IMG/VR virus record: IMGVR_UViG_2531839147_000004
Source: a virus
Taxonomy: Duplodnaviria > Heunggongvirae > Uroviricota > Caudoviricetes
Strand: one strand, 5' to 3'
DNA length: 16,877 bases
The notes under the pieces: model-generated
Seen by the model: the letters and a program-made list of their open reading frames with translations, nothing else
Told to the model about the DNA's origin: nothing
Databases searched by the model: none
Part shown: positions 3,204 through 16,877 of the stretch, piece by piece
How positions within the stretch are numbered: position 1 is the first letter of the stretch
Layout: each line of letters starts with the position of its first letter
Program-made: the position numbers and the translations under genes

Positions 3204-5207
3204 ATGATTATGAGTGAAAATGATACAACCCCAAAGAAGTCTACAAGCCAGATTAACAAAGCGGTATTCTTTACATCTGCTTTGCTAATTTTCCTTCTTG
3301 TCGCCTTTGCCGCCGTATTCCCGGATGTCGCCGACAAAAATTTTAAACTACTTCAGCAACAAATCTTCACGAATGCCAGCTGGTTCTACATACTTGCTGT
3401 GGCCCTGATTTTACTGAGCGTCACGTTCCTTGGACTCTCACGTTACGGTGATATAAAGCTGGGCCCAGACCATGCGCAGCCTGATTTCAGCTACCACTCC
3501 TGGTTCGCGATGCTTTTTTCGGCAGGGATGGGGATCGGCCTGATGTTCTTTGGCGTTGCCGAACCTGTGATGCATTATCTTTCGCCACCTGTCGGCACTC
3601 CAGAGACCGTTGCGGCAGCGAAGGAAGCCATGCGCCTGACGTTCTTCCACTGGGGTCTGCACGCATGGGCAATTTATGCCATCGTGGCGCTGATTCTGGC
3701 CTTTTTCAGTTACCGTCACGGTCTGCCTTTAACGCTGCGTTCTGCGCTCTATCCCATTATCGGCGATCGCATTTACGGGCCTATAGGCCACGCGGTTGAT
3801 ATCTTCGCCGTGATAGGCACTGTCTTTGGCGTTGCAACATCGCTGGGTTACGGTGTATTGCAGGTGAATGCCGGTTTGAACCATCTTTTCGGCGTGCCCA
3901 TCAATGAAACGGTACAGGTCATTTTGATCGTGGTCATCACGGGGTTAGCGACGATTTCGGTGGTGTCCGGCCTGGACAAGGGAATACGCATCCTGTCTGA
4001 GCTTAATCTGGGCCTGGCGGTGTTGCTCCTGGCGCTGGTCTTGTGCCTGGGTCCCACTGTGCTTCTGCTGAAGTCATTTGTGGAAAATACGGGTGGTTAT
4101 CTGTCGGAACTGGTGAGTAAAACGTTCAACCTTTACGCGTATGAACCCAAGTCGAGCAACTGGCTGGGGGGCTGGACATTATTATACTGGGGATGGTGGC
4201 TTTCATGGTCGCCGTTTGTAGGTATGTTCATTGCACGCGTTTCCCGCGGCAGGACAATTCGTGAGTTCGTGACTGGCGTGTTGTTTGTTCCCGCCGGCTT
4301 TACGCTCATGTGGATGACGGTGTTTGGAAACAGCGCCATCTATCTCATCATGAACCAGGGCGCCACTGACCTCGCCAATACCGTTCAGCAGGATGTTGCG
4401 CTTGCCCTGTTTAATTTCCTGGAGCATTTCCCGTTCTCTTCCGTGCTGTCATTCATTGCAATGGCGATGGTCATCGTCTTCTTTGTAACGTCTGCTGATT
4501 CGGGGGCAATGGTTGTGGATACTCTGGCATCAGGTGGGGTGGCAAACACGCCCGTCTGGCAGCGAATTTTCTGGGCATCGCTCATGGGCGTTGTTGCTAT
4601 TGCCCTGCTGATCGCAGGGGGGCTGAGTGCGTTGCAAACCGTAACGATAGCGAGTGCATTGCCCTTCTCAGTTATCTTATTAATATCCATATACGGACTG
4701 TTAAAAGCCCTGCGTCGGGATTTGACCAAGCGTGAAAGCCTTAGCATGGCGACTATTGCTCCTACGGCTGCACGTAACCCAATTCCCTGGCAGAGAAGGT
4801 TACGCAATATCGCGTATTTGCCGAAGCGCTCTCTTGTGAAACGTTTTATGGACGACATTATCCAACCCGCCATGACGCTGGTTCAGGAGGAACTTAACAA
4901 GCAGGGAACGATAAGCCACATCAGTGACGCCGCCGAGGATCGTATTCGCCTTGAAGTCGATTTGGGCAACGAGCTGAATTATATATATGAAGTGAGGCTT
5001 CGCGGGTATAACTCACCGACCTTCGCGCTCGCTGCGCTGGATAATGATGAGCAGCAGAGTGAACAACATCGATATTATCGCGCTGAAGTCTATCTCAAAG
5101 AGGGCGGCCAAAATTATGATGTAATGGGCTGGAATCAGGAACAGCTGATTAATGACATACTGGACCAGTACGAAAAACACCTGCACTTCCTGCATCTGGT
5201 TCGTTAA
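3204..5207 (+). CDS. BCCT-family transporter, BetT-like (choline / glycine-betaine type) with long cytoplasmic C-terminal tail
   Basis: 667 aa; BCCT tryptophan signature GGWTLLYWGWWLSWSPF; overall layout and C-terminal tail (...DILDQYEKHLHFLHL) parallel E. coli BetT as I recall it. Confidence 0.9.
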   Translation: MIMSENDTTPKKSTSQINKAVFFTSALLIFLLVAFAAVFPDVADKNFKLLQQQIFTNASWFYILAVALILLSVTFLGLSRYGDIKLGPDHAQPDFSYHSWFAMLFSAGMGIGLMFFGVAEPVMHYLSPPVGTPETVAAAKEAMRLTFFHWGLHAWAIYAIVALILAFFSYRHGLPLTLRSALYPIIGDRIYGPIGHAVDIFAVIGTVFGVATSLGYGVLQVNAGLNHLFGVPINETVQVILIVVITGLATISVVSGLDKGIRILSELNLGLAVLLLALVLCLGPTVLLLKSFVENTGGYLSELVSKTFNLYAYEPKSSNWLGGWTLLYWGWWLSWSPFVGMFIARVSRGRTIREFVTGVLFVPAGFTLMWMTVFGNSAIYLIMNQGATDLANTVQQDVALALFNFLEHFPFSSVLSFIAMAMVIVFFVTSADSGAMVVDTLASGGVANTPVWQRIFWASLMGVVAIALLIAGGLSALQTVTIASALPFSVILLISIYGLLKALRRDLTKRESLSMATIAPTAARNPIPWQRRLRNIAYLPKRSLVKRFMDDIIQPAMTLVQEELNKQGTISHISDAAEDRIRLEVDLGNELNYIYEVRLRGYNSPTFALAALDNDEQQSEQHRYYRAEVYLKEGGQNYDVMGWNQEQLINDILDQYEKHLHFLHLVR

Positions 5208-5215
5208 CAGCAACA

Positions 5216-5243
5216 TGCCGCCACAGAGGCGGCATTTATTTAT
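5216..5243 (+). terminator. Rho-independent terminator after BCCT gene
   Basis: Stem TGCCGCC / GGCGGCA (7 bp), loop ACAGA, followed by TTTATTTAT. Confidence 0.55.
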
Positions 5244-5386
5244 CCCGGCTGCAATATGAGGGAATGCAGAATGATTTCACGCTGGAAATGGATGCTGAAG
5301 CAGACATTTAAAAACTATGGTTCAGGGCAACGTTATTCGCAATTGTCGCAATAATAACGGCCCTTTTATCAATTCTTTTTAAATCA

Positions 5387-6547
5387 ATGATACCTGAGTC
5401 GGTTTCCGTGAAGGTTGGTGCGGAAGCAGTCGATAACATTCTGAACATACTGGCATCGAGTATGCTGGCAGTGACCACATTTTCGCTGAGCATCATGGTC
5501 ACAGCCTACGGTTCAGCCACTACTAATGTGACTCCCAGAGCTACTCGTTTAGTTGTTGAAGACGTCACCACACAAAATGTACTGGCCACCTTCATCGGTT
5601 CTTTTCTCTTCAGTCTGGTAGGGATTATTGCCCTCAATATGGGAGCTTATGGAGAAAGGGGGAGAGTCATTTTATTCATTGTAACACTGGTTGTCATTGC
5701 CTTAATCCTCATCACATTGCTTCGCTGGATACAGCATTTGACCTCTCTGGGGAGGGTTGGTGAGACAACGGCAAAAGTAGAACAGGCGGCCATCGAAACA
5801 TTTATTGCGAGAGCAAGAAATCCCTGTCTCGGCGGATATCCATGGCTTGAGAACAATGAACAGCCGAAAGGAACGGTTGCAGTTTATCCGAAAAAGATTG
5901 GCTATGTTGAATATGTTGATATGGTGAAACTCAGCAAGCTGCTGACCAATGATCCCCGTCATGTATACCTCGTGGCGCAGCCGGGCAGTTTCATACATCC
6001 GTCCACGCCAGTTTTGTACCTGAGTCAGGGCCAGGAGTCATCAATCAGCACCGATTTACTTGAGACGATTATTGTCTCGGATGTACGTTCATTTGCTCAG
6101 GACCCCCGATTTTGTCTTAGCGTCATGGCCGAAATAGCCTGCCGAGCCCTTTCCCCCGCAGTGAACGATCCTGGAACCGCCATTGATGTCATTGGCAGAG
6201 GTGTACGTATACTTTCCGCTTACGCGCAGAATAAATCTGATGAAATAGAAGTGAAATATCCTTCTGTACATGTTGCACCACTTCAGAATAACGATCTACT
6301 TGAAGACTTTTTCTCACCTGTTGCGCGCGATGGTGCCAGTATGAGGGAAATTCAGATAAGGGTACTTAAAGGACTGTCGATGCTGAGTAAGGGTTGGCCT
6401 GGAATTTTTGCTGAAGCCGCACAAACCCTAGCATTTGAAACATTAGAGCATGCTACTCGTGCTGACCATATAGATTCTGACAGATATCTAATAAAATCAA
6501 TTTATTATAATTTATTTAGTGGCGAAGATTCTAATAAAAAACCATAG
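5387..6547 (+). CDS. Membrane protein of unknown function (DUF2254-like), N-terminus probably disrupted by a frameshift
   Basis: Three predicted TM helices then a soluble C-terminal domain. A well-placed SD+ATG at 5271 opens a 27-codon ORF in another frame; the main frame is open from 5312 and encodes a further TM helix before the first ATG. Confidence 0.55.
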   Translation: MIPESVSVKVGAEAVDNILNILASSMLAVTTFSLSIMVTAYGSATTNVTPRATRLVVEDVTTQNVLATFIGSFLFSLVGIIALNMGAYGERGRVILFIVTLVVIALILITLLRWIQHLTSLGRVGETTAKVEQAAIETFIARARNPCLGGYPWLENNEQPKGTVAVYPKKIGYVEYVDMVKLSKLLTNDPRHVYLVAQPGSFIHPSTPVLYLSQGQESSISTDLLETIIVSDVRSFAQDPRFCLSVMAEIACRALSPAVNDPGTAIDVIGRGVRILSAYAQNKSDEIEVKYPSVHVAPLQNNDLLEDFFSPVARDGASMREIQIRVLKGLSMLSKGWPGIFAEAAQTLAFETLEHATRADHIDSDRYLIKSIYYNLFSGEDSNKKP

Positions 6548-6609
6548 TTGCGGAGCAAGCGATACGGTTGTTGGCAAGTCAAGGGCAAAGCATTCGCGTG
6601 AGAGTGGGC

Positions 6610-6633
6610 GTCTGCTTTGTGCCAGAAGCGGAC
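6610..6633. repeat. Dyad element copy B: GTCTGC-N12-GCGGAC
   Basis: GTCTGC TTTGTGCCAGAA GCGGAC in the convergent intergenic region between the DUF2254-like gene and the LysR gene. Confidence 0.5.
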
Positions 6634-6677
6634 ATACGTAACTTATGATACGCATCGCCAATCATCCGTTTCAAACA

Positions 6678-7559
6678 TCAACGCGGAAACGTTTTAAGAA
6701 TGTAATCCCGAACATAGGCGGTTCGGCTGTTATTAGCCGTCCTTTTGTTCCAGACCAGATAAAGATGATTAGTCGGAGCGAGGTCTGCAGGTGTCACTGA
6801 AATCAGGCGACCACTTTTCAGGTCATTGTCACAGTGATAATCCGGCAGCACTGTCCACCCGTGGCCGTCACAGACCAAGTCGCGGATAATACGTAAATCC
6901 GGAATGGTGAATGTAGCCTGCATCTCAGGGGCTCTCTGAAACATGGAGGCCCAGAGCGCTCTAATCAGTGGCAACTCTTCGTCATAAGCAATCAGCGGTA
7001 ATGAGGCAAGCGTTTCAGCACCAGGTTCTGATCCGATGATCTCTGACATGGCGGGAGCATGAACAAGGAGCATGCGTTCAGTCAGTAGATGTGCATAGCC
7101 GTACAGACGGTCATCAGGCATAGATGCGGTAACAGCGAGATCGGCGCTCCCGTCATGCAAAAGGGAATAAATACGTTGCTTATTGCCGGTATGAAAGCGT
7201 AGGCGATACCCCTCCTTCATTAGTGGAGCCATTACTGTCCCAAGCCGGGAATGAATAAAATCTGGCGGTCCTGCCAGATTAATTGTTCCCCCACGTACAG
7301 AGCCTGACCGGAAAGAGGACAGCTTTTCTTCCAGACCATCAATGAAGGGTGAAACTGAGCGGGCAAGCTCATCCGCAGCTTCGGTTGCCGTCACGCCTCT
7401 GGCCTGCCTGATAAACAGACGCTTACCAACCAGAGTCTCAAGAGACTGGATATGCTGTGACGCCGCGGGCTGAGTGATGCCCAGTAGTTCTGCCGCCTTT
7501 GAAAAGGAGCCAGAGCGATAGGCCTCAAGAAACGTTCGCAGATGGCTCAGATGGCTCAT
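6678..7559 (-). CDS. LysR-family transcriptional regulator
   Basis: 293 aa; N-terminal LysR HTH (LRTFLEAYRSGSFSKAAELLGITQPAASQHIQSLE); start ATG overlaps the stop of the upstream ChaC-like gene (ATGA at 7556-7559). Confidence 0.9.
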   Translation of the reverse strand: MSHLSHLRTFLEAYRSGSFSKAAELLGITQPAASQHIQSLETLVGKRLFIRQARGVTATEAADELARSVSPFIDGLEEKLSSFRSGSVRGGTINLAGPPDFIHSRLGTVMAPLMKEGYRLRFHTGNKQRIYSLLHDGSADLAVTASMPDDRLYGYAHLLTERMLLVHAPAMSEIIGSEPGAETLASLPLIAYDEELPLIRALWASMFQRAPEMQATFTIPDLRIIRDLVCDGHGWTVLPDYHCDNDLKSGRLISVTPADLAPTNHLYLVWNKRTANNSRTAYVRDYILKTFPR

Positions 7560-8248
7560 AGTGAAGCGCCTCGCTGATGAAGTTTATCGTTACAGGGAGC
7601 CTCATGCAGAGCAAGGGCCAGTTCACTCACGTAATCATCCCGTATTCCCAACGCACCCAGAGTGGCCTGCAGTTTCCATACATAATCTGCATTCGTGCCA
7701 ATGTCTCCACGGGCAGATGCGATGCTCAACGCTACGGTCGCTGTAAGATTGTCCTGTTCATAATGCGGATGCAGTCTGTCTGATACGAAAGCCAGCGCCT
7801 GAATTTCCTTACCGTTTCCTAGCGAAACGTCTGCCCAGACCGGACGGTAAAGACCGGTTATCATCTCGCGCGTCCAGACAATTTCCAGCTCATTAATAAG
7901 AGTCGATTCCGGCAGTCTGAACGCAATACCTTCGGTAATTCCACCTTCGTCGAGCGATAACATCCTGCCGGGGACATCAGGAGTCGCTCGTCCGGATATC
8001 AAACGAATGCAGAAACTGCGCTGCCATCCTTTCAGACGGGCCCGTTGCATTTCTTCAATCGCCAGCACGGGATTCCACATCAATGACCCGTAGGCAAATA
8101 TCCAGACAGGAGCACCCGTCGGGCGCTCCTCCAGAGTAGAGTTCATTGATGCGCGTATTTTTTCAGCGTCCCAGAGCATATTCGCCGGGAGCAGCGCTTC
8201 ATGCACCCTGACAAATGTGCCATTAAGCATATTTTCACGGGTAAGCAT
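7556..8248 (-). CDS. ChaC-like gamma-glutamylcyclotransferase (glutathione-specific GGCT family)
   Basis: 230 aa; hallmark VWIFAYGSLMWNP motif and overall co-linearity with E. coli ChaC as I recall it; SD GGGAGG upstream. Confidence 0.85.
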   Translation of the reverse strand: MLTRENMLNGTFVRVHEALLPANMLWDAEKIRASMNSTLEERPTGAPVWIFAYGSLMWNPVLAIEEMQRARLKGWQRSFCIRLISGRATPDVPGRMLSLDEGGITEGIAFRLPESTLINELEIVWTREMITGLYRPVWADVSLGNGKEIQALAFVSDRLHPHYEQDNLTATVALSIASARGDIGTNADYVWKLQATLGALGIRDDYVSELALALHEAPCNDKLHQRGASL

Positions 8249-8259
8249 ATAACCTCCCT

Positions 8260-9459
8260 TTACTGGCCTACGATTTTAACCTGTTGAAATTTACGACTGT
8301 GGCTGCGACGGATTTGTGCAAGCAGCAACAGCAGGCCGAGCAGAGAAACAATCGCACCGCTGATACCGGTATACACGATACCGGCGTGGCTTATAGTAAT
8401 GCTGCCCAGTACTGATCCCAGCGCTATACCTGAGTTGAAGCCCGCAATATTCAGGCCGGCAGCAACACCATGCGCATGAGGAGCATGTTGCTCAGCGACA
8501 CCAATCAGACGGGCCTGCAGTGCCGGCACTGCGGCAAATGTCACCATACCCAGCAGCGCAACCAGAATGCCCATGCTCACCGGTGAGGATGACAGCAGCC
8601 ACATACCAAGCACGACAACAACAATGCCGCTAATGATGAGTATATTGGCACGATTAACCCCCATGCTGTCGGTAAGTTTCCCACCAAGAATATTACCTAC
8701 CGCAGCTGTAATACCGTAAACCAGCATAAACAGACTCACCGTTGCTCCGGTAACCCCTGTCACCTGCGTCAGAATAGGTGCGATAAAGGTGTAATCCGTA
8801 AACGAGCCTGCATACGCCAGCACCGTAACCAGCGCGCCGGCCAGCAACTTACGGTTAAACAGCATGCCGATATTCTGCATTGCTGAGTCACTATGTTCAC
8901 CGGGCACGCTGCGTACGGGATCTTTCATACCGAACAACAGTCCAAGGAATCCGAACGCGCCAAAAGCGGCAATAGCGCCGAGAACTGGACGCCATGAGAC
9001 CACCCCCCCCAACCATGTACTCAGCGGTACGCCGATTGCCATCGCCAGAGTAAAGCCACCAAATACCACAGCCACCGCTCTGCCTGCTTTACCCGGTCCA
9101 GCAAGACGAGCTGCGGTACTGGATGCCGCAGCCAGAAACAGGCCGTGTCCCAGACCAGCAATGAACCGCGCTAACAGGAGCTGAGGTAATGTGGCTGCAA
9201 ACGCGGCCGCCAGACTACCGGCAGTAAACACAACGGCAGTTGTAAGCATTACATTTTTCCGGCTCCAGCTTGCTGTCAGCGCAGACAGTACGGGTGCCGC
9301 GAACGTTGCCCCCAGTGCATAGGTTGTAACCGCTGCCCCGGTCTGCTCCACACCCACACACAACCCCTGAGCCATAACGTCTGTCAGCCCAATGGGGACA
9401 AATTCCGCGAGTCCGAGCGCAAAGGCACTGATAGTAAACACATAAATAACAAATGGCAT
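8260..9459 (-). CDS. MFS transporter (12-TM, YdhP / drug-sugar efflux-like)
   Basis: 399 aa, highly hydrophobic with repeated TM segments; N-terminal LGLAEFVPIGL motif typical of this MFS subgroup; SD CAGGAG before ATG; first gene of the MFS-ChaC-LysR operon. Confidence 0.85.
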   Translation of the reverse strand: MPFVIYVFTISAFALGLAEFVPIGLTDVMAQGLCVGVEQTGAAVTTYALGATFAAPVLSALTASWSRKNVMLTTAVVFTAGSLAAAFAATLPQLLLARFIAGLGHGLFLAAASSTAARLAGPGKAGRAVAVVFGGFTLAMAIGVPLSTWLGGVVSWRPVLGAIAAFGAFGFLGLLFGMKDPVRSVPGEHSDSAMQNIGMLFNRKLLAGALVTVLAYAGSFTDYTFIAPILTQVTGVTGATVSLFMLVYGITAAVGNILGGKLTDSMGVNRANILIISGIVVVVLGMWLLSSSPVSMGILVALLGMVTFAAVPALQARLIGVAEQHAPHAHGVAAGLNIAGFNSGIALGSVLGSITISHAGIVYTGISGAIVSLLGLLLLLAQIRRSHSRKFQQVKIVGQ

Positions 9460-11934: not shown

Positions 11935-12224
11935 TGGTGAATTTACGTAAAGCGGCTAAAGGCCAGATGTGCCAGATCAGAATCCCTGGCTACTGCAATC
12001 ACAATCCCGAAACCTCTGTGCTGGCGCATTACAGGCTGGCGGGGACGTGCGGAACAGCGACAAAACCACACGATATGCAGGCGGCGATAGCCTGTAGCTC
12101 ATGCCACGATCTAATCGACGGGCGGGTAAAAACCAGCGATTACACCAAAGAAGAATTGCGCCTGATGCATGCTGAAGGGGTTTTTCGCACACAAGAAATC
12201 TGGAGAAAGAAAGGTCATTTATGA
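11934..12224 (+). CDS. YbcO-like (DUF1364) Cys/His-rich putative nuclease of the lambdoid nin region
   Basis: 96 aa; Cys/His pattern CQIRIPGYC...H...C...CSSCHDLID matches the DLP12 YbcO family as I recall it; translationally coupled on both sides. Confidence 0.6.
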   Translation: MVNLRKAAKGQMCQIRIPGYCNHNPETSVLAHYRLAGTCGTATKPHDMQAAIACSSCHDLIDGRVKTSDYTKEELRLMHAEGVFRTQEIWRKKGHL

Positions 12225-12763
12225 TTTACCCAACGAATACAGGAAAAAGCGGAGAACACCTTCGCCTCACCACGCTGGAAAGTGTCTGGATTCAGGGAAA
12301 ACTACGTATGTGGGGGCGCTGGTCGTATATTGGCGGTGGCAGGTCAGGGAATATGTTCAATCAGTTGTTGGCATCCAAAAAACTGACGAAAACAGCCATT
12401 AATGAAGCCCTGCGTAGAATGAAAAAAGCGGGAATAGAGAAAGCTGAGCTGGAAGCGTTTTTGCGAGAGATGATCAACGGCAAGCAAAAGAGCTGGCTGG
12501 CGCATTGTACTGATGCAGAGGCGTTATGTATTGATCGAGTCATAAGTGAGGTGCTGGCAGAGCATCCAGGATTGATTTGCATTCTCCGGCAACGCTATGA
12601 AGGGCGGGGGATGACTAAGCGCAAAATGGCTGAATTGCTAAATGATGGACACCCAGAGTGGTGTTTTAGCACATGCGAAAAACGGATTGCTAATTGGTTA
12701 GCTGTTGCTGAGTATGCCCTATATATTCCCATGCGTGAATCATTTGCTGAGAAAATGGCTTGA
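12221..12763 (+). CDS. Putative late-gene antiterminator Q-like protein (DUF1133-type)
   Basis: 180 aa; last gene before a terminator-bearing spacer and the lysis cassette, the position of Q in lambdoid phages; ATGA overlap with the upstream gene. Confidence 0.5.
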   Translation: MIYPTNTGKSGEHLRLTTLESVWIQGKLRMWGRWSYIGGGRSGNMFNQLLASKKLTKTAINEALRRMKKAGIEKAELEAFLREMINGKQKSWLAHCTDAEALCIDRVISEVLAEHPGLICILRQRYEGRGMTKRKMAELLNDGHPEWCFSTCEKRIANWLAVAEYALYIPMRESFAEKMA

Positions 12764-12839: not shown

Positions 12840-12860
12840 TCGTAAAAAAACCGCTTAATG
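12840..12860 (+). terminator. Candidate tR'-like terminator downstream of the Q-like gene
   Basis: A7 - ACCGC TTAAT GCGGT - T7; short GC stem flanked by A and T runs. Confidence 0.4.
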
Positions 12861-13189
12861 CGGTTTTTTTACGTCAGGAAAGCAGGGGAGAATGCTGCTA
12901 GTTGGGCAACTGGTCTTTCTGCTCCAAATTATAACAGAGACCAGTTATAGTTTCGGTGCTGTGTTTTTTTACAATATTGTGATAACACATTGCTGGCGGG
13001 AGTTTTGATATTTCTTGGCAGGGGCTGATGATGCGTTATCCTGATGTCGTCAACTCATATAAAATGAGATGAGAGATCATTGCAGGGTGGTTTGTAATTC
13101 GCTGTTTAGCGGGACAATATGTTGTCTGATACAAGACACCCGACGCCTCAGATTACTATAATAAAGACGAAGCATCCTTTGTATTGACC

Positions 13190-13215
13190 AACCGCCTGTT
13201 TAGGCGGTTCTTTTT
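13190..13215 (+). terminator. Rho-independent terminator in the Q-to-lysis spacer
   Basis: Stem AACCGCCT / AGGCGGTT (8 bp), loop GTTT, followed by CTTTTT; TATAAT at 13157-13162 about 30 bp upstream. Confidence 0.5.
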
Positions 13216-13805
13216 GGACTGGTTTATTGTATGCCAAATGATTATTAAAAAGGTTGTGTTAATAACAAAATCCGAAATAATATGCCTGCATATTTTTATC
13301 TTGCTTATATTCTGCATATTGTGCATAGCAGGCTCATCCCTGCAATCAAAACTGTATGATGAGTTATTTTTTTTTCCTTTTTTCCAGTCATCTGATGATG
13401 ACCTGCTTCTTTTTAATCCGGATCGACATCAGTTTTTTAAGATAATTCCTGCGAGTTATATGCATAAATACCACAAACTCCGCATTTTATGTGGTTGGGA
13501 GTTGCCGGGCGCGCAGTGAGTTTGCTAAGAAAACTCCTGCATGGTGAATCCCCCTGTGCGGTGGGGTGATACCATTAACCTTTTCTGTCGCCGACAGGTA
13601 TCACGAACATTTTGTTCACCGGGAGGCACCCGGCACCATGCACTTCAATAGATTCTCTCCACATTATGGATATTCTTTCAGAATATCCCACGCAGACTTT
13701 GTGTAAATGTTAACAAATGTGCGTTTTATTTGATCTGATTCGCTGTTTGAGCGTCCAAAACAACGGTATATATAATCCTTTACTATATGACATATGTGAG
13801 GAAAA

Positions 13806-14234
13806 ATGGGTTTTCGTAGCGCATCAATTCTTACGTTGATTATTAGTGGGATTATTATCGGGTGCACTGATGCTGTATCGACAAATTATCATGACCGTAC
13901 ATCATATTACTCCGATAAAGCAATAGAGACACAGTATGTGAGTTCATCTGAACGTACTTCTGATGTTAGTGAGGATATCCGTCTGTATGCCCATCAAATC
14001 AAGAGCGCCATCGAAAAACAGTTCGGGGATGCGAGTAAGTATTCAGGAAAAGAGTGTACACTGAGAATGCATATGGCCCCGAATGGCCTTCTACTGGAGG
14101 TTAAAAGAGAAAGTGGAGACCTCGATTTATGTCGTGAAGCGATGAATGCGATAAAGAATGCTGATATACCTGCCCCCCCTTCGCCGGAAGTATATAAAGT
14201 ATTTCAAAATGGGGTGCTGGATTTTAAACCCTGA
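13806..14234 (+). CDS. Outer-membrane lipoprotein with TolA C-terminal (domain III)-like domain, paralog 1
   Basis: Signal peptide with lipobox IIGC then Thr; C-terminal ~85 aa align by eye to TolA domain III (QIKSAIE..., GKECTLRM, APNGLLL, GD..LC, IPAPPSPEVYKVF, ending VLDFKP); SD GAGGA before ATG; AT-rich. Confidence 0.7.
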   Translation: MGFRSASILTLIISGIIIGCTDAVSTNYHDRTSYYSDKAIETQYVSSSERTSDVSEDIRLYAHQIKSAIEKQFGDASKYSGKECTLRMHMAPNGLLLEVKRESGDLDLCREAMNAIKNADIPAPPSPEVYKVFQNGVLDFKP

Positions 14235-14384
14235 TATTTATTGTTTTGTAATAAACGGTTTCGGCTTAGGTTTGTTCTGACACAGCTACGGCACTGAGCT
14301 AAATTTAGCGGATAGTCAGCTCTGAGCCAGTGGCGGACGTAACAACTACTATTGCTGAGATTTTAATGGATTGAGGAGCAAGAA

Positions 14385-14780
14385 GTGGGATTAAAGAAAA
14401 TCGTTATGTTGACTTTTTGGGTCGGTTTTGTTGCGGGATGCACACCTTTACACCCTTCAGATTGCCACAAAACTACTGCTACAGGTAGTTGCAGTTCAGG
14501 ACGCTGGGATGATCAGGATGAATGGGGGGCGCAAGCGCGGGGAATCAGAGCTGCAATTAATGCCAAACTTGATGAGCCGCATAACTGGAAAGGGAAAAAA
14601 TGCAGGTTGCATATGGAATTCTCTCAGGATGGCACGGCGTTAAAAATATCTACCAGTAACGGTGATAAAGCCTATTGCGAAGCGATAAAGTCCGCAGCTC
14701 ATAAAGCCAAATTTCCGGCCTTCAACAATCCGGAAGTCTACAGAGATTTTCAGAAATCTGGCTTTGACATGCGAGGTTAG
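14385..14780 (+). CDS. Outer-membrane lipoprotein with TolA C-terminal-like domain, paralog 2 (GTG start)
   Basis: SD GAGGAG 6 nt upstream of GTG; lipobox VAGC then Thr; C-terminal domain shares the GK.C.L.M...DG...GD..C...P...PEVY..FQ...D pattern with paralog 1 (about one third identical by manual alignment). Confidence 0.7.
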   Translation: MGLKKIVMLTFWVGFVAGCTPLHPSDCHKTTATGSCSSGRWDDQDEWGAQARGIRAAINAKLDEPHNWKGKKCRLHMEFSQDGTALKISTSNGDKAYCEAIKSAAHKAKFPAFNNPEVYRDFQKSGFDMRG

Positions 14781-14915
14781 CTCTTCAATTACTATATCTC
14801 ATTCATAGCAAACTGACAGATTTGATGATGTTCTATATACGAAACCTGTGATGTCAAGTCTGAGCTAATACAAATAAACATAATATCAGAGAAATACATT
14901 TTATTAGCTCGCTAC

Positions 14916-14938
14916 GGCGAGCTTTTTATATTGCATCG
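14916..14938 (+). terminator. Rho-independent terminator closing the lipoprotein unit
   Basis: Perfect 7-bp stem AGCTCGC / GCGAGCT, loop TACG, followed by TTTTT. Confidence 0.6.
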
Positions 14939-15031
14939 TCTCCAGCATATATATCAATTAAGGCTCTGATTGATGTGTCTGAAAGCCTACACATAATAAC
15001 TATGCCATCCGTTCCGTGCGGAGGTGAGGCT

Positions 15032-15247
15032 ATGAAATCCATGGACAAAATTTCAACAGACATTGCCTACGGCACCTCCGCAGGCAGTGCTGGCTACTGG
15101 TTTTTACAGTTGCTCGATAGAGTAACTCCGTCACAGTGGGCTGCAATCGGTGTGCTGGGTAGTCTGGTATTTGGCCTGCTGACGTACCTGACAAACCTTT
15201 ATTTCAAGATTAAAGAAGATAAGCGCAAGGCTGCGAGAGGTGAATAA
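15032..15247 (+). CDS. S: Pinholin, phage 21 S-type, with dual-start motif (MKSM...)
   Basis: 71 aa, [71 protein letters not shown], near-identical in layout to S21 as I recall it; SD GGAGGTGA; stop overlaps the next ATG (TAATG). The ORF-track start at 14975 is an upstream in-frame extension. Confidence 0.9.
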
Positions 15248-16877
15248 TGCCTCCATCATTACGAAAAGTCGTTGCTGCTGCTATTGGTGGCGGAGCAATT
15301 GCTATAGCATCAGTGTTAATCACTGGCCCAAGTGGTAACGATGGTCTGGAAGGTGTCAGCTACATACCATACAAAGATATTGTTGGTGTATGGACTGTAT
15401 GTCACGGGCATAACGGGAAATACACCGCACAGGATGCAACGACAGCACAGAAAGGGATAATCCAGCTAAGCAGCGCGACCAACAGCACGTCTGAAACGCT
15501 GGCGGCAACGCCAAAGGCAGTAAAATCAGCCTATGACAATGCAGAGAAACGTCTGCAGAAAGACCAGAACGGCGCTGATATACCCGATAAGGGACGCTTC
15601 CTGAACAACATTAACGCGGTCAGTAAAACAGACTTTGCTGATAAGCGTGGTATGCGTTATGTGCGGGTTAACGCTCCTGCAGGTGCAACATCTGGAAAAT
15701 ATTACCCTGTTGTTGTTATGCGTTCTGCTGGCTCAGTAAGCGAACTGGCATCAAGGGTCATTATCACCACGGCAACGCGAACCGCAGGCGATCCGATGAA
15801 TAACTGCGAGTTTAACGGATTTGTTATGCCTGGTGGCTGGACTGACAGGGGGCGTTATGCTTATGGAATGTTCTGGCAATATCAAAACAATGAACGAGCC
15901 ATCCACTCAATAATGATGAGTAATAAGGGCGATGATTTGCGCTCTGTGTTCTATGTTGATGGCGCTGCTTTCCCTGTTTTTGCGTTTATCGAAGATGGCC
16001 TGTCAATATCCGCACCTGGTGCTGATCTCGTTGTTAATGATACGACCTATAAGTTTGGGGCAACAAATCCAGCGACTGAATGTATCGCGGCGGACGTTAT
16101 CCTTGATTTTAAGAGTGGGCGTGGTTTTTATGAGTCTCATTCGTTAATCGTTAACGATAACTTGTCGTGCAAAAAACTTTTTGCCACAGACGAAATTGTA
16201 GCGCGTGGTGGTAATCAGATTCGAATGATAGGTGGGGAGTATGGGGCATTATGGCGTAATGATGGCGCTAAAACTTACCTGCTGCTTACCAATCAAGGTG
16301 ATGTTTATGGTGGATGGAATACATTAAGACCGTTTGCTATTGATAACGCAACCGGCGAACTGGTTATTGGAACCAAGCTGTCTGCAAGTCTGAACGGTAA
16401 CGCATTGACAGCAACAAAGCTGCAAACGCCAAGACTGGTTTCTGGGGTTGAGTTTGATGGTTCAAAAGATATTACTTTAACCGCCGCGCATGTGGCTGCT
16501 TTTGCCAGAAGGGCAACGGATACATATGCCGATGCGGATGGTGGCGTTCCCTGGAATGCCGAATCAGGCGCTTACAATGTCACCCGCTCTGGCGACAGCT
16601 ATATTCTGGTTAACTTCTATACCGGAGTCGGAAGTTGCCGGACCCTGCAGATGAAGGCGCATTACAGAAATGGTGGTCTGTTCTACCGTTCTTCAAGAGA
16701 CGGTTATGGTTTTGAGGAAGACTGGGCAGAAGTTTATACCTCGAAAAATCTTCCACCAGAAAGCTACCCAGTCGGCGCACCAATCCCGTGGCCATCAGAT
16801 ACCGTTCCGTCTGGTTATGCCCTGATGCAGGGGCAGACTTTTGACAAATCTGCTTACCCGAAACTTGCAGCCGCTTA
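15247..16877 (+). CDS. Chimeric ORF: SAR-endolysin N-terminus (phage 21 R-like, ~54 codons) fused in frame to lambdoid side-tail-fibre sequence; 3' end beyond the window
   Basis: Begins [55 protein letters not shown] (SAR helix plus start of lysozyme domain), then continues [15 protein letters not shown]... through ...[29 protein letters not shown], typical of Stf-type fibres. I translated the frame by hand and found no stop to the window end. Not in the ORF track because it is open-ended. Confidence 0.7.

Follow-up and report, generated by a model that had tools for sequence, protein, structure and literature searches.

Why would a prophage carry two adjacent genes for lipoproteins that end in a domain of the host's own cell envelope? 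The question is raised by IMG/VR virus record IMGVR_UViG_2531839147_000004 (Caudoviricetes), of which we analyzed the whole stretch of 16,877 nucleotides, called the window below. A first-pass annotation, made from the letters alone, had described two plus-strand genes, here named P1 and P2, as a pair of outer-membrane lipoproteins with C-termini resembling domain III of TolA, and had suggested that they might act as decoys or modulate Tol-Pal during lysis. Both open reading frames (ORFs) are present in the window on the + strand where that annotation had placed them. P1 and P2 belong to the TolA C-terminal domain family without being TolA itself. As for their role, we propose that they are decoys that block the Tol-dependent import of colicins and filamentous phages, a reading that we consider evenly balanced between right and wrong, and that is weighed below against three rival explanations.

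P1 and P2 are predicted lipoproteins that end in TolA domain III

P1 (13806..14234, + strand) encodes 142 residues from an ATG start preceded by the Shine-Dalgarno sequence GAGGA, and P2 (14385..14780, + strand) encodes 131 residues from a GTG start preceded by GAGGAG. Both are predicted outer-membrane lipoproteins. Their N-termini combine a basic n-region and a hydrophobic core of 11-12 residues with a lipobox (IIGC in P1, VAGC in P2; pattern used, [LVI][ASTVI][GAS]C), and each lipobox is followed by Thr at +2, as had been read from the sequence at first; Asp at +2 was taken as the inner-membrane retention signal. P1 is thereby divided into a signal peptide (residues 1-19), a predicted lipidated Cys20, a linker (about 21-54) and TolA domain III (55-142), and P2 into a signal peptide (1-18), a predicted lipidated Cys19, a linker (20-43, with Cys27 and Cys36) and TolA domain III (44-131). 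In the AlphaFold2 models, pLDDT is below 50 over the first 52 residues of P1 and the first 39 of P2, and the P1 linker is probably flexible, judging by its model.

The likeness of the C-terminal domains to TolA domain III, noticed by eye at first, holds by profile and by structure, with TonB as the control. In a search with hidden Markov models (HMMs), P1 scored 82.6 bits (E = 2.4e-23) and P2 54.6 bits (E = 1.3e-14) against Pfam PF06519 (gathering cut-off 25 bits), far above the control TonB_2, for which P1 was marginal (23.6 bits versus a cut-off of 22) and P2 had no match. Searches of PDB sequences aligned P1 55-142 without gaps to E. coli TolA 334-421 (59% identity, E = 5e-28). P2 44-131 is 31% identical to the same TolA residues, with a statistically matched core of 51-129 (E = 5e-9). 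Each protein stops where TolA itself stops, and the translation of P1 does close with VLDFKP, as previously remarked.

AlphaFold2 modeled the domain with a pLDDT of about 90 in both P1 and P2. TolA III structures (3QDP, 2X9A, 1TOL complexes) ranked first for both models in Foldseek, and the superposition that had been suggested as a check gave a root-mean-square deviation of 0.6 A and a TM score of 0.94 for P1 on 2X9A_B, and of 1.1 A and 0.92 for P2 on 3QDP. The best TonB C-terminal domains reached only E = 0.009-0.4 and TM 0.4-0.5, and the HMM and fold controls together rule out a TonB C-terminal domain as the identity of P1 or P2. Cys84/Cys109 of P1 and Cys73/Cys98 of P2 align to Cys363/Cys388 of E. 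coli TolA; equivalents of this pair, predicted to form a disulfide, are kept in 56-57 of 59 short representatives of the family.

Neither protein contains TolA domains I and II, the place of which is taken by the lipoprotein signal and linker. The NCBIfam models of TolA (362-387 positions) were matched over their last 80-98 positions only. Both proteins stay below the cut-off of NF007065 (213; P1 107.8 bits, P2 53.7 bits), and P1 passes that of TIGR02794 (59.45) with 75.6 bits through its C-terminal match alone, P2 remaining below it with 47.2. We do not regard P1 and P2 as TolA because its membrane anchor, its domain II and the tol-pal operon context were all looked for and none was found.

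The databases list such genes as 'TolA protein' or 'cell envelope integrity TolA C-terminal domain-containing protein'; P1 is entered in RefSeq as a tolA pseudogene. Since P1 and P2 fail as TolA equivalogs and lie outside a tol-pal operon, the names 'TolA protein' and 'tolA pseudogene' are over-annotation. RefSeq/PGAP records P1 as 'incomplete; missing N-terminus' with a start placed inside the ORF, and begins P2 at an ATG (about 14407) that omits the basic n-region MGLKK, which the GTG start at 14385 provides. Both calls look like artefacts of naming after a full-length TolA equivalog model. A truncated or pseudogenised tolA, as PGAP has it, is ruled out for P1 by its complete ORF, its own signal peptide, its presence in many genomes and purifying selection.

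Compared with E. coli TolA III (1TOL, 1S62, 2X9A, 3QDP/3QDR), P1 and P2 share the fold, the cysteine pair and the C-terminal end point. They differ from full-length TolA in lacking the transmembrane helix, the SHLS motif and helical domain II, and hence any coupling to TolQR and the proton-motive force; and whereas tolA is a gene of the tol-pal operon, P1 and P2 lie on a prophage and carry a lipoprotein signal and linker at their N-terminus.

The edges by which TolA domain III is bound

TolA III is bound at two opposite edges. Strand addition to beta3 (A415-K420) is the mode of binding of TolB, of the g3p of Ff and IF1 phages and of colicin N (PMC7391070, PMC4339652), while colicin A uses the opposite edge, with beta2 (375-LLDIKP-380) and Lys368, Lys379 and Lys396 (PMC3365938). 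The beta3 edge is kept in both P1 and P2, and the colicin A edge in P1. At beta3 (415-APLDFK-420 in TolA), P1 has GVLDFK, P2 has SGFDMR, and related proteins of Klebsiella plasmids, described below, have APLDFR or AALDFR. At beta2, LLDIKP is replaced by LLEVKR in P1, by ALKIST in P2 and by LNSAIA or VNSATA on the plasmids, and P1 keeps two of the three cation-pi lysines of the colicin A site. Among 59 diverse short lipoproteins of the family, conservation is seen at the equivalents of L417, D418, F419 and K420 but not at the beta2 site, which varies, a pattern that is weak evidence for a family-wide need for the beta3 edge.

How an anchored domain III could act

The steps that we infer (outer-membrane localisation, expression, ligand binding and a protective phenotype) would run as follows. 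The lipobox would direct Sec export and lipoprotein processing, and Lol would then be expected to transfer the proteins to the inner face of the outer membrane because neither has Asp at +2. Attached by a linker of about 25-35 residues, the TolA-III domain would hang from this membrane and present the strand-addition edges needed by group A colicins, cloacin-type bacteriocins and the N1 domain of g3p of filamentous phages. An invader would be trapped just beneath the outer membrane, ahead of TolA, the anchor placing the decoy where colicin T-domains and g3p would first emerge; the carrier cell would in consequence tolerate colicins and exclude filamentous phages. The genes would be expressed in the lysogen from a promoter of their own, with Q-dependent late readthrough upon induction. 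The two proteins together probably widen the range of trapped ligands, since P1 stays close to E. coli TolA, from which P2 has diverged.

Part of this scheme has known parallels. Cor (of phi80, N15, HK022 and mEp167) and Llp (of T5) are small phage lipoproteins that inactivate FhuA and so block phages and some colicins. They obstruct an outer-membrane receptor, whereas P1 and P2 would imitate a periplasmic co-receptor, and no sequence relation of P1 or P2 to Cor or Llp was found, the PHROG matches being to families of unknown function (the only significant one was PHROG 5772, 'unknown function').

A closer parallel is TolA III exported in the laboratory, which, like P1 and P2, places a free domain III without its motor in the periplasm of a tolA+ cell, and which is dominant-negative in constructs. 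Wan and Baneyx in 1998 reportedly described leakage of periplasmic protein with an rbp-TolAIII construct, and Levengood-Freyermuth, Click and Webster are reported to have obtained colicin tolerance from exported TolA III in 1993. Those proteins are engineered, soluble and over-expressed, whereas P1 and P2 are natural, predicted to be lipid-anchored, diverged, under purifying selection and borne by mobile elements.

The same parallel speaks for a rival explanation, in which P1 and P2 are antagonists of Tol-Pal. An anchored TolA-III would titrate the N-terminus of TolB, and perhaps CpoB, so that TolA could not pull TolB off Pal; a local tol-like state with a weak link between outer membrane and wall, vesiculation and leakage would follow, and would aid lysis and the release of progeny or of bacteriocin. 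TolAIII sent to the periplasm indeed perturbs the wild-type envelope and raises the release of periplasmic protein (PMC6195910), and TolB uses the beta3 edge that the family has kept. A 'TolA'-type gene of prophage CP-933O, the homology of which to P1 and P2 is unverified, is induced 32-fold by ciprofloxacin (PMC11125564), as would suit a role at lysis. We nevertheless consider this explanation unlikely, for reasons that lie in the settings of the family, to which we return with each of them.

A family of short lipoproteins under purifying selection

The breadth of the family became visible when a profile was run exhaustively against 1.84 billion representatives of 50%-identity clusters, with 596 matches; a word-indexed profile search gave little outside the P2 clade. 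Among the best 150 of the 596 matches, 75 are short proteins (100-175 residues), 59 of which have a lipobox and a few a plain Sec signal. Asp does not occur at +2 in any of the 59. A lipobox is also present in 154 of 166 close homologues, and in all plasmid and cross-genus copies examined.

The ratio of nonsynonymous to synonymous substitution rates (dN/dS) is 0.07-0.12 for P2. For P1, the TolA domain gave 0.09-0.34 and the N-terminal part with signal and linker 0.4-0.8. Both lineages are thus under purifying selection, including the copies on mobile elements.

The family is visible in annotation and functionally uncharacterised. The first-pass annotation knew of no characterised system of this kind, and this is borne out by the literature searched, in which we found no functional study of the family, only passing mentions at the level of annotation. 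A cloacin plasmid has been noted as carrying 'TolA and TolB family proteins' (PMC10269471), and a strain-variable phage segment of 1,355 bp has been listed as 'TolA protein, hypothetical protein' (PMC6854850). In a survey of the evolution of TolA and TonB from 2025 (PMC12204202), none of the words plasmid, standalone and decoy occurs.

A plasmid operon that joins TolA and TonB domains

About 380 plasmids carry a TolA-III lipoprotein. Most are mobilizable Klebsiella ColRNAI plasmids of 10-12 kb with genes for a cloacin-like tRNase bacteriocin, its immunity and lysis. On these plasmids, the stop codon of the TolA-III lipoprotein gene overlaps the start of a second gene, whose product of 121 residues combines a Sec signal peptide with a TonB C-terminal domain (E = 9e-11 to Pfam TonB_C, E = 1e-15 to the PDB sequence of E. 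coli TonB). In Klebsiella pneumoniae p1_020030 (L003:4908-5641), for example, the TolA-III lipoprotein has 123 residues and the lipobox LTAC. The operon adjoins the bacteriocin, immunity and lysis operon and is divergent from it. CloDF13 is ruled out as a carrier of the same genes: the slot is filled there by proteins K and L, which are unrelated.

The TonB-domain protein follows the same design as the TolA-III lipoproteins, an exported hub domain without motor coupling encoded in one operon with such a lipoprotein; it differs in the domain itself and in having a plain Sec signal instead of a lipobox, and it is absent from the window. Periplasmic fragments of TonB made in the laboratory inhibit TonB-dependent transport. 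Tol and Ton have different tasks in the cell. As their exploitation by colicins and phages for import is the shared trait that matters to a mobile element, the operon is most simply read as an import block. Its occurrence on bacteriocin plasmids is circumstantial support for the decoy reading, and more discriminating than the conservation of beta3.

For antagonism of Tol-Pal, the plasmids cut both ways. The copies stand beside a bacteriocin operon that includes a lysis gene, as a role in bacteriocin release would have it, but they are divergent from that operon, and their partner is a domain of TonB, a protein that is exploited for import yet has no known role in outer-membrane integrity.

One further neighbor was seen on the Klebsiella IncFIB/FII plasmid pCuAs (L005:4229-5258), where a gene for a secreted thioredoxin-fold protein (DsbA/TraF-like, with CxxC) lies directly upstream of the TolA-III lipoprotein gene in the same orientation. 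This may be no coincidence, since the TolA domain depends on a disulfide.

Two lineages joined in one prophage

P1 and P2 had been described as paralogs about one third identical to each other. Their similarity is real, the figure being 28% identity, but the two are separate lineages that were joined here and not a local paralog pair. In blastn comparisons, a P1 module (13429..14235, + strand) is 94% identical to prophages that carry P1 only (L110) and ends exactly at the P1 stop codon. A P2 module (14350..14782, + strand) comprises the ORF and about 30 bp with the ribosome-binding site, and is homologous to single-copy genes of pO157, of IncK2/Z plasmids and of Enterobacter and Citrobacter chromosomes. 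As the homology blocks end in this way, P2 was inserted between P1 and a shared terminator as a bare ORF, and P1-P2 is most simply read as one operon. A local tandem duplication is ruled out by the low identity, by the occurrence of each type alone elsewhere and by the module junction at the P1 stop.

The joined pair is common. It is present with 100% identity in 775 of 5,426 complete E. coli genomes, and was found in 151 IMG/VR viral contigs. Neighbors were counted in the best 80 of these 151 contigs, and there P1 is followed by P2 in 77 of 80 loci and by a holin gene in 76 of 80. Two types of Q lie upstream, and many of the loci run on into endolysin and Rz/Rz1 genes. Among 50,697 sequenced phages, the pair was found in one, mEp460_ev081 (LR597641.1, 6107-7081; 99.9% identity), the suffix of which suggests a laboratory-evolved recombinant that may have taken the module from a host prophage. 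The holin in this record is mis-annotated as 'Phage tail fiber protein'.

P1 variants (91% and 66% identity) without P2 lie between Q and holin in complete lambdoid prophages. One of them is just upstream of genes for a nanS-like esterase, DUF1378 and DUF826, an arrangement that we take to be typical of Stx-phage late regions. The Q-to-holin interval of P1-only prophages also contains further genes of conversion type, among them a homologue of the polymyxin-resistance connector PmrD on the opposite strand (L109:4551-4877, L111:4550-4876), and a TfpB-like protein and an AraC-family regulator (L106-L108:3636-5539).

The P2 type is found alone on a wider range of replicons. It occurs on 607 plasmids in all (259 of them conjugative), and on pO157 it lies near toxB. 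On IncK2/Z plasmids (L113:4964-5395, L114:4958-5389), the gene follows a nikB-like relaxase gene by about 67 bp in the same orientation, and on these I-complex conjugative plasmids it may be co-transcribed with the relaxosome genes. The pili of conjugative plasmids attract filamentous phages, and the g3p of one of these, IF1, binds TolA III (2X9A), so that a decoy would make sense on such plasmids. The type is also present in Kluyvera, Leclercia, Lelliottia, Buttiauxella, Klebsiella, Raoultella, Pantoea and Citrobacter. Inspection of the neighbors in these cross-genus loci by eye revealed mixed chromosomal contexts and no recurring phage or bacteriocin neighbors. In Lelliottia wanjuensis (L095, about 6830-7680), the gene is found next to yciA, some 0.5 kb upstream of the tonB gene of the chromosome; this proximity is probably a coincidence of the insertion site, worth recording in view of the pairing of TolA and TonB domains on plasmids.

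A motif that includes two extra cysteines, C-[AT]-PLHPS-x-C-HKTTATG-x-C-SSGRWDDQDEWG, is strongly conserved in the linker of the P2 clade (window 14442-14513, P2 residues 20-43). AlphaFold scored it at low confidence, and instead of being a plain tether it may fold into a small disulfide loop or serve as a binding element.

These chromosomal copies raise the second rival explanation, that the P2 type is an ordinary lipoprotein of Enterobacter, Klebsiella and Citrobacter, a housekeeping or stress paralog that has a physiological partner in the periplasm and might, for instance, modulate Tol-Pal or peptidoglycan remodelling as CpoB does, with the mobile copies as mere passengers. The gene occupies a conserved position in Enterobacter beside a glutathione-peroxidase-like gene (23 similar places), which adjoins it in Kluyvera and in a third cross-genus locus as well; purifying selection across genera is very strong (omega 0.06-0.12), and the cysteine motif of the linker is conserved. 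We still hold this to be decidedly improbable. Passengers would not be expected to be captured repeatedly and independently (by lambdoid prophages with two Q types and by IncK2/Z, IncF, pO157 and ColRNAI plasmids) and to be under purifying selection on the mobile elements themselves. The P1 lineage, moreover, was seen only in prophage late regions, and a housekeeping role offers no easy account of the pairing with a secreted TonB domain. Such settings, after a relaxase gene, on pO157 or on the Enterobacter chromosome, are also non-lytic and as such argue against a Tol-Pal antagonist serving lysis.

The Q-to-holin slot

The window is a defective Rac-type prophage at ttcA of a non-K-12 E. coli, and an identical locus is present in strain TH9F11. 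The order there begins with intR, recET and sieB, the repressor region and a cargo island, and ends with NinB-like, HNH/YbcO-like and DUF1133 genes, P1-P2, a class II holin gene and a tail-fibre gene. The placement of the pair between a Q-like antiterminator and a holin, as first annotated, is upheld by profile matches on both sides. The upstream boundary is a Q-like late antiterminator gene (12221..12763, + strand), assigned to PHROG 753 'anti-termination protein Q-like' (E = 6e-79) and by PGAP to the DUF1133 family, with PF06576 recorded for the equivalent gene in the P1-only prophage L110. The downstream boundary is the class II holin gene (15032..15247, + strand), identified by PHROG 9876 and PHROG 20 'holin' and by PGAP. 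Most related loci share a homology block of about 13600-15250. In other phages with the same Q and holin flanks, stx2 or tRNA genes fill the interval instead, and for this reason the earlier description of a moron slot, as used by stx, is correct.

The pair has a putative promoter and a terminator of its own. A sigma-70 promoter-like site, TTGAGC-18-TATAAT (13747-13776, + strand; 10 of 12 consensus matches), ends 30 bp before the P1 start and is a candidate promoter for expression in the lysogen; it is present as an exact copy in 73 of the 80 viral-contig loci, and in L110 its -10 element is TGTAAT. The intrinsic terminator that had been expected lies between P2 and the holin gene (14906..14931, + strand), with a GC-rich stem of 7 bp and a loop of 4 nucleotides (14906-14923), a U-run, a folding energy of -13 kcal/mol (z = -2.15) and an exact copy in 71 of 80 related loci. 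The pair was also said to be AT-rich, which is so, although to a modest degree: GC content is 0.39-0.455 in the P1-P2 unit and 0.47-0.52 in the flanks, lower by about 5-10 points.

Further upstream, about 80 bp after the Q-like gene, the sequence can fold into a strong hairpin flanked by A- and T-runs (about 12841-12873; -19.7 kcal/mol). A consensus scan indicated a candidate late promoter, AAGACA-18-TATAAT (13133-13162, + strand), and folding a terminator-like hairpin within about 30 bp after it (13190-13209, + strand). Together these elements (13133-13209) could be the pR'/tR' pair of the little-studied DUF1133-type Q; the region is conserved with L110 from 13134 onward.

The holin gene abuts the tail-fibre gene, and genes for endolysin, spanin, terminase and head are absent between the two, from which it follows that the lysis and morphogenesis genes were deleted from this prophage. 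The P1-P2 unit was retained despite this large internal deletion. Another part of the prophage, the cargo island (window 3204-9459) between the replication region and the NinB-like gene, is of non-phage content and encodes a BCCT-family transporter, a DUF2254 protein, a LysR regulator, a gamma-glutamylcyclotransferase and an MFS transporter.

The slot, too, bears on what the pair may do. A Tol-Pal antagonist that aids lysis would be well placed directly upstream of the holin gene in a Q-dependent late unit, as is the case in most viral-contig loci. However, the unit ends in its own terminator ahead of the holin gene, and it persists in a prophage without lysis genes, here and in many E. coli genomes.

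Morons such as stx1/stx2 and the lambda genes bor and lom resemble P1-P2 in being extra units with a promoter-like site, a terminator and a deviant base composition. Their cargo is a toxin or an outer-membrane protein, whereas that of P1-P2 is a mimic of a host envelope protein, with expression predicted in the lysogen. According to the third rival explanation, P1-P2 is nonetheless a virulence moron of the Bor/Lom type that contributes to serum resistance, adhesion or host survival, its TolA fold being incidental. The slot is indeed used by stx and other virulence morons, a copy lies near toxB on pO157, and the P1-only prophages carry the PmrD homologue and the nanS-like esterase in the same region. 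But ordinary Lol-sorted lipoproteins face the periplasm and not the surface, the alignment to TolA is gapless with the disulfide pair, core and C-terminal strand kept, and carriers are common among commensal, environmental and animal isolates alike. We consider this explanation very improbable.

Weighing the decoy reading

Several observations weigh against P1 and P2 as decoys. The PADLOC defence library has no match for P1, P2 or the plasmid TolA-III lipoprotein. The colicin A site is lost in P2 and in the plasmid copies. Even the retention of beta3 is not proof of selected ligand binding, because strand addition is largely mediated by the backbone and several of the conserved residues are structural. 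The promoter for lysogen expression is a consensus match and nothing more. The conserved Enterobacter site of the P2 clade is chromosomal and non-phage, as is compatible with housekeeping, and the cysteine motif suggests that the linker of this clade is more than a passive tether. Finally, a decoy has a cost, and leakiness itself could be what is selected, because free TolA III binds TolB and makes cells leaky.

Implications

Tolerance to colicins and other bacteriocins and resistance to filamentous phages are usually explained by cognate immunity proteins, by receptor changes or by tol and ton mutations that cripple the cell. If P1 and P2 are decoys, a transferable gene that imitates the hijacked hub would offer another, inexpensive way to tolerance, and a common one, given 775 of 5,426 E. 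coli genomes, about 600 plasmids with the P2 type and hundreds of Klebsiella plasmids. It would account for the presence of such genes on conjugative plasmids, whose pili expose their hosts to filamentous phages, and it would bear on antimicrobials based on bacteriocins or phages against clinical E. coli and Klebsiella. The natural, diverged variants of TolA-III could also be used to map what colicins and phages require of TolA.

Independent of function, a systematic annotation error is corrected for genes named 'TolA' or 'tolA pseudogene'. The operon with the TonB C-terminal domain and the breadth of carriage on mobile elements strengthen a decoy hypothesis that can be tested. In its general form, which we consider possible and somewhat more doubtful than the proposal for P1 and P2, the mobile elements of Enterobacterales, from lambdoid prophages through conjugative or virulence plasmids of the I-complex and F type to small bacteriocin plasmids, would widely carry motor-less decoys, with TolA-III in the form of an outer-membrane lipoprotein and, on the bacteriocin plasmids, a secreted TonB C-terminal domain. 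They would amount to an unrecognised, broad immunity against Tol- and Ton-dependent bacteriocins and pilus-specific filamentous phages, a layer that differs from cognate immunity proteins, from loss of receptors and from lipoproteins that block receptors.

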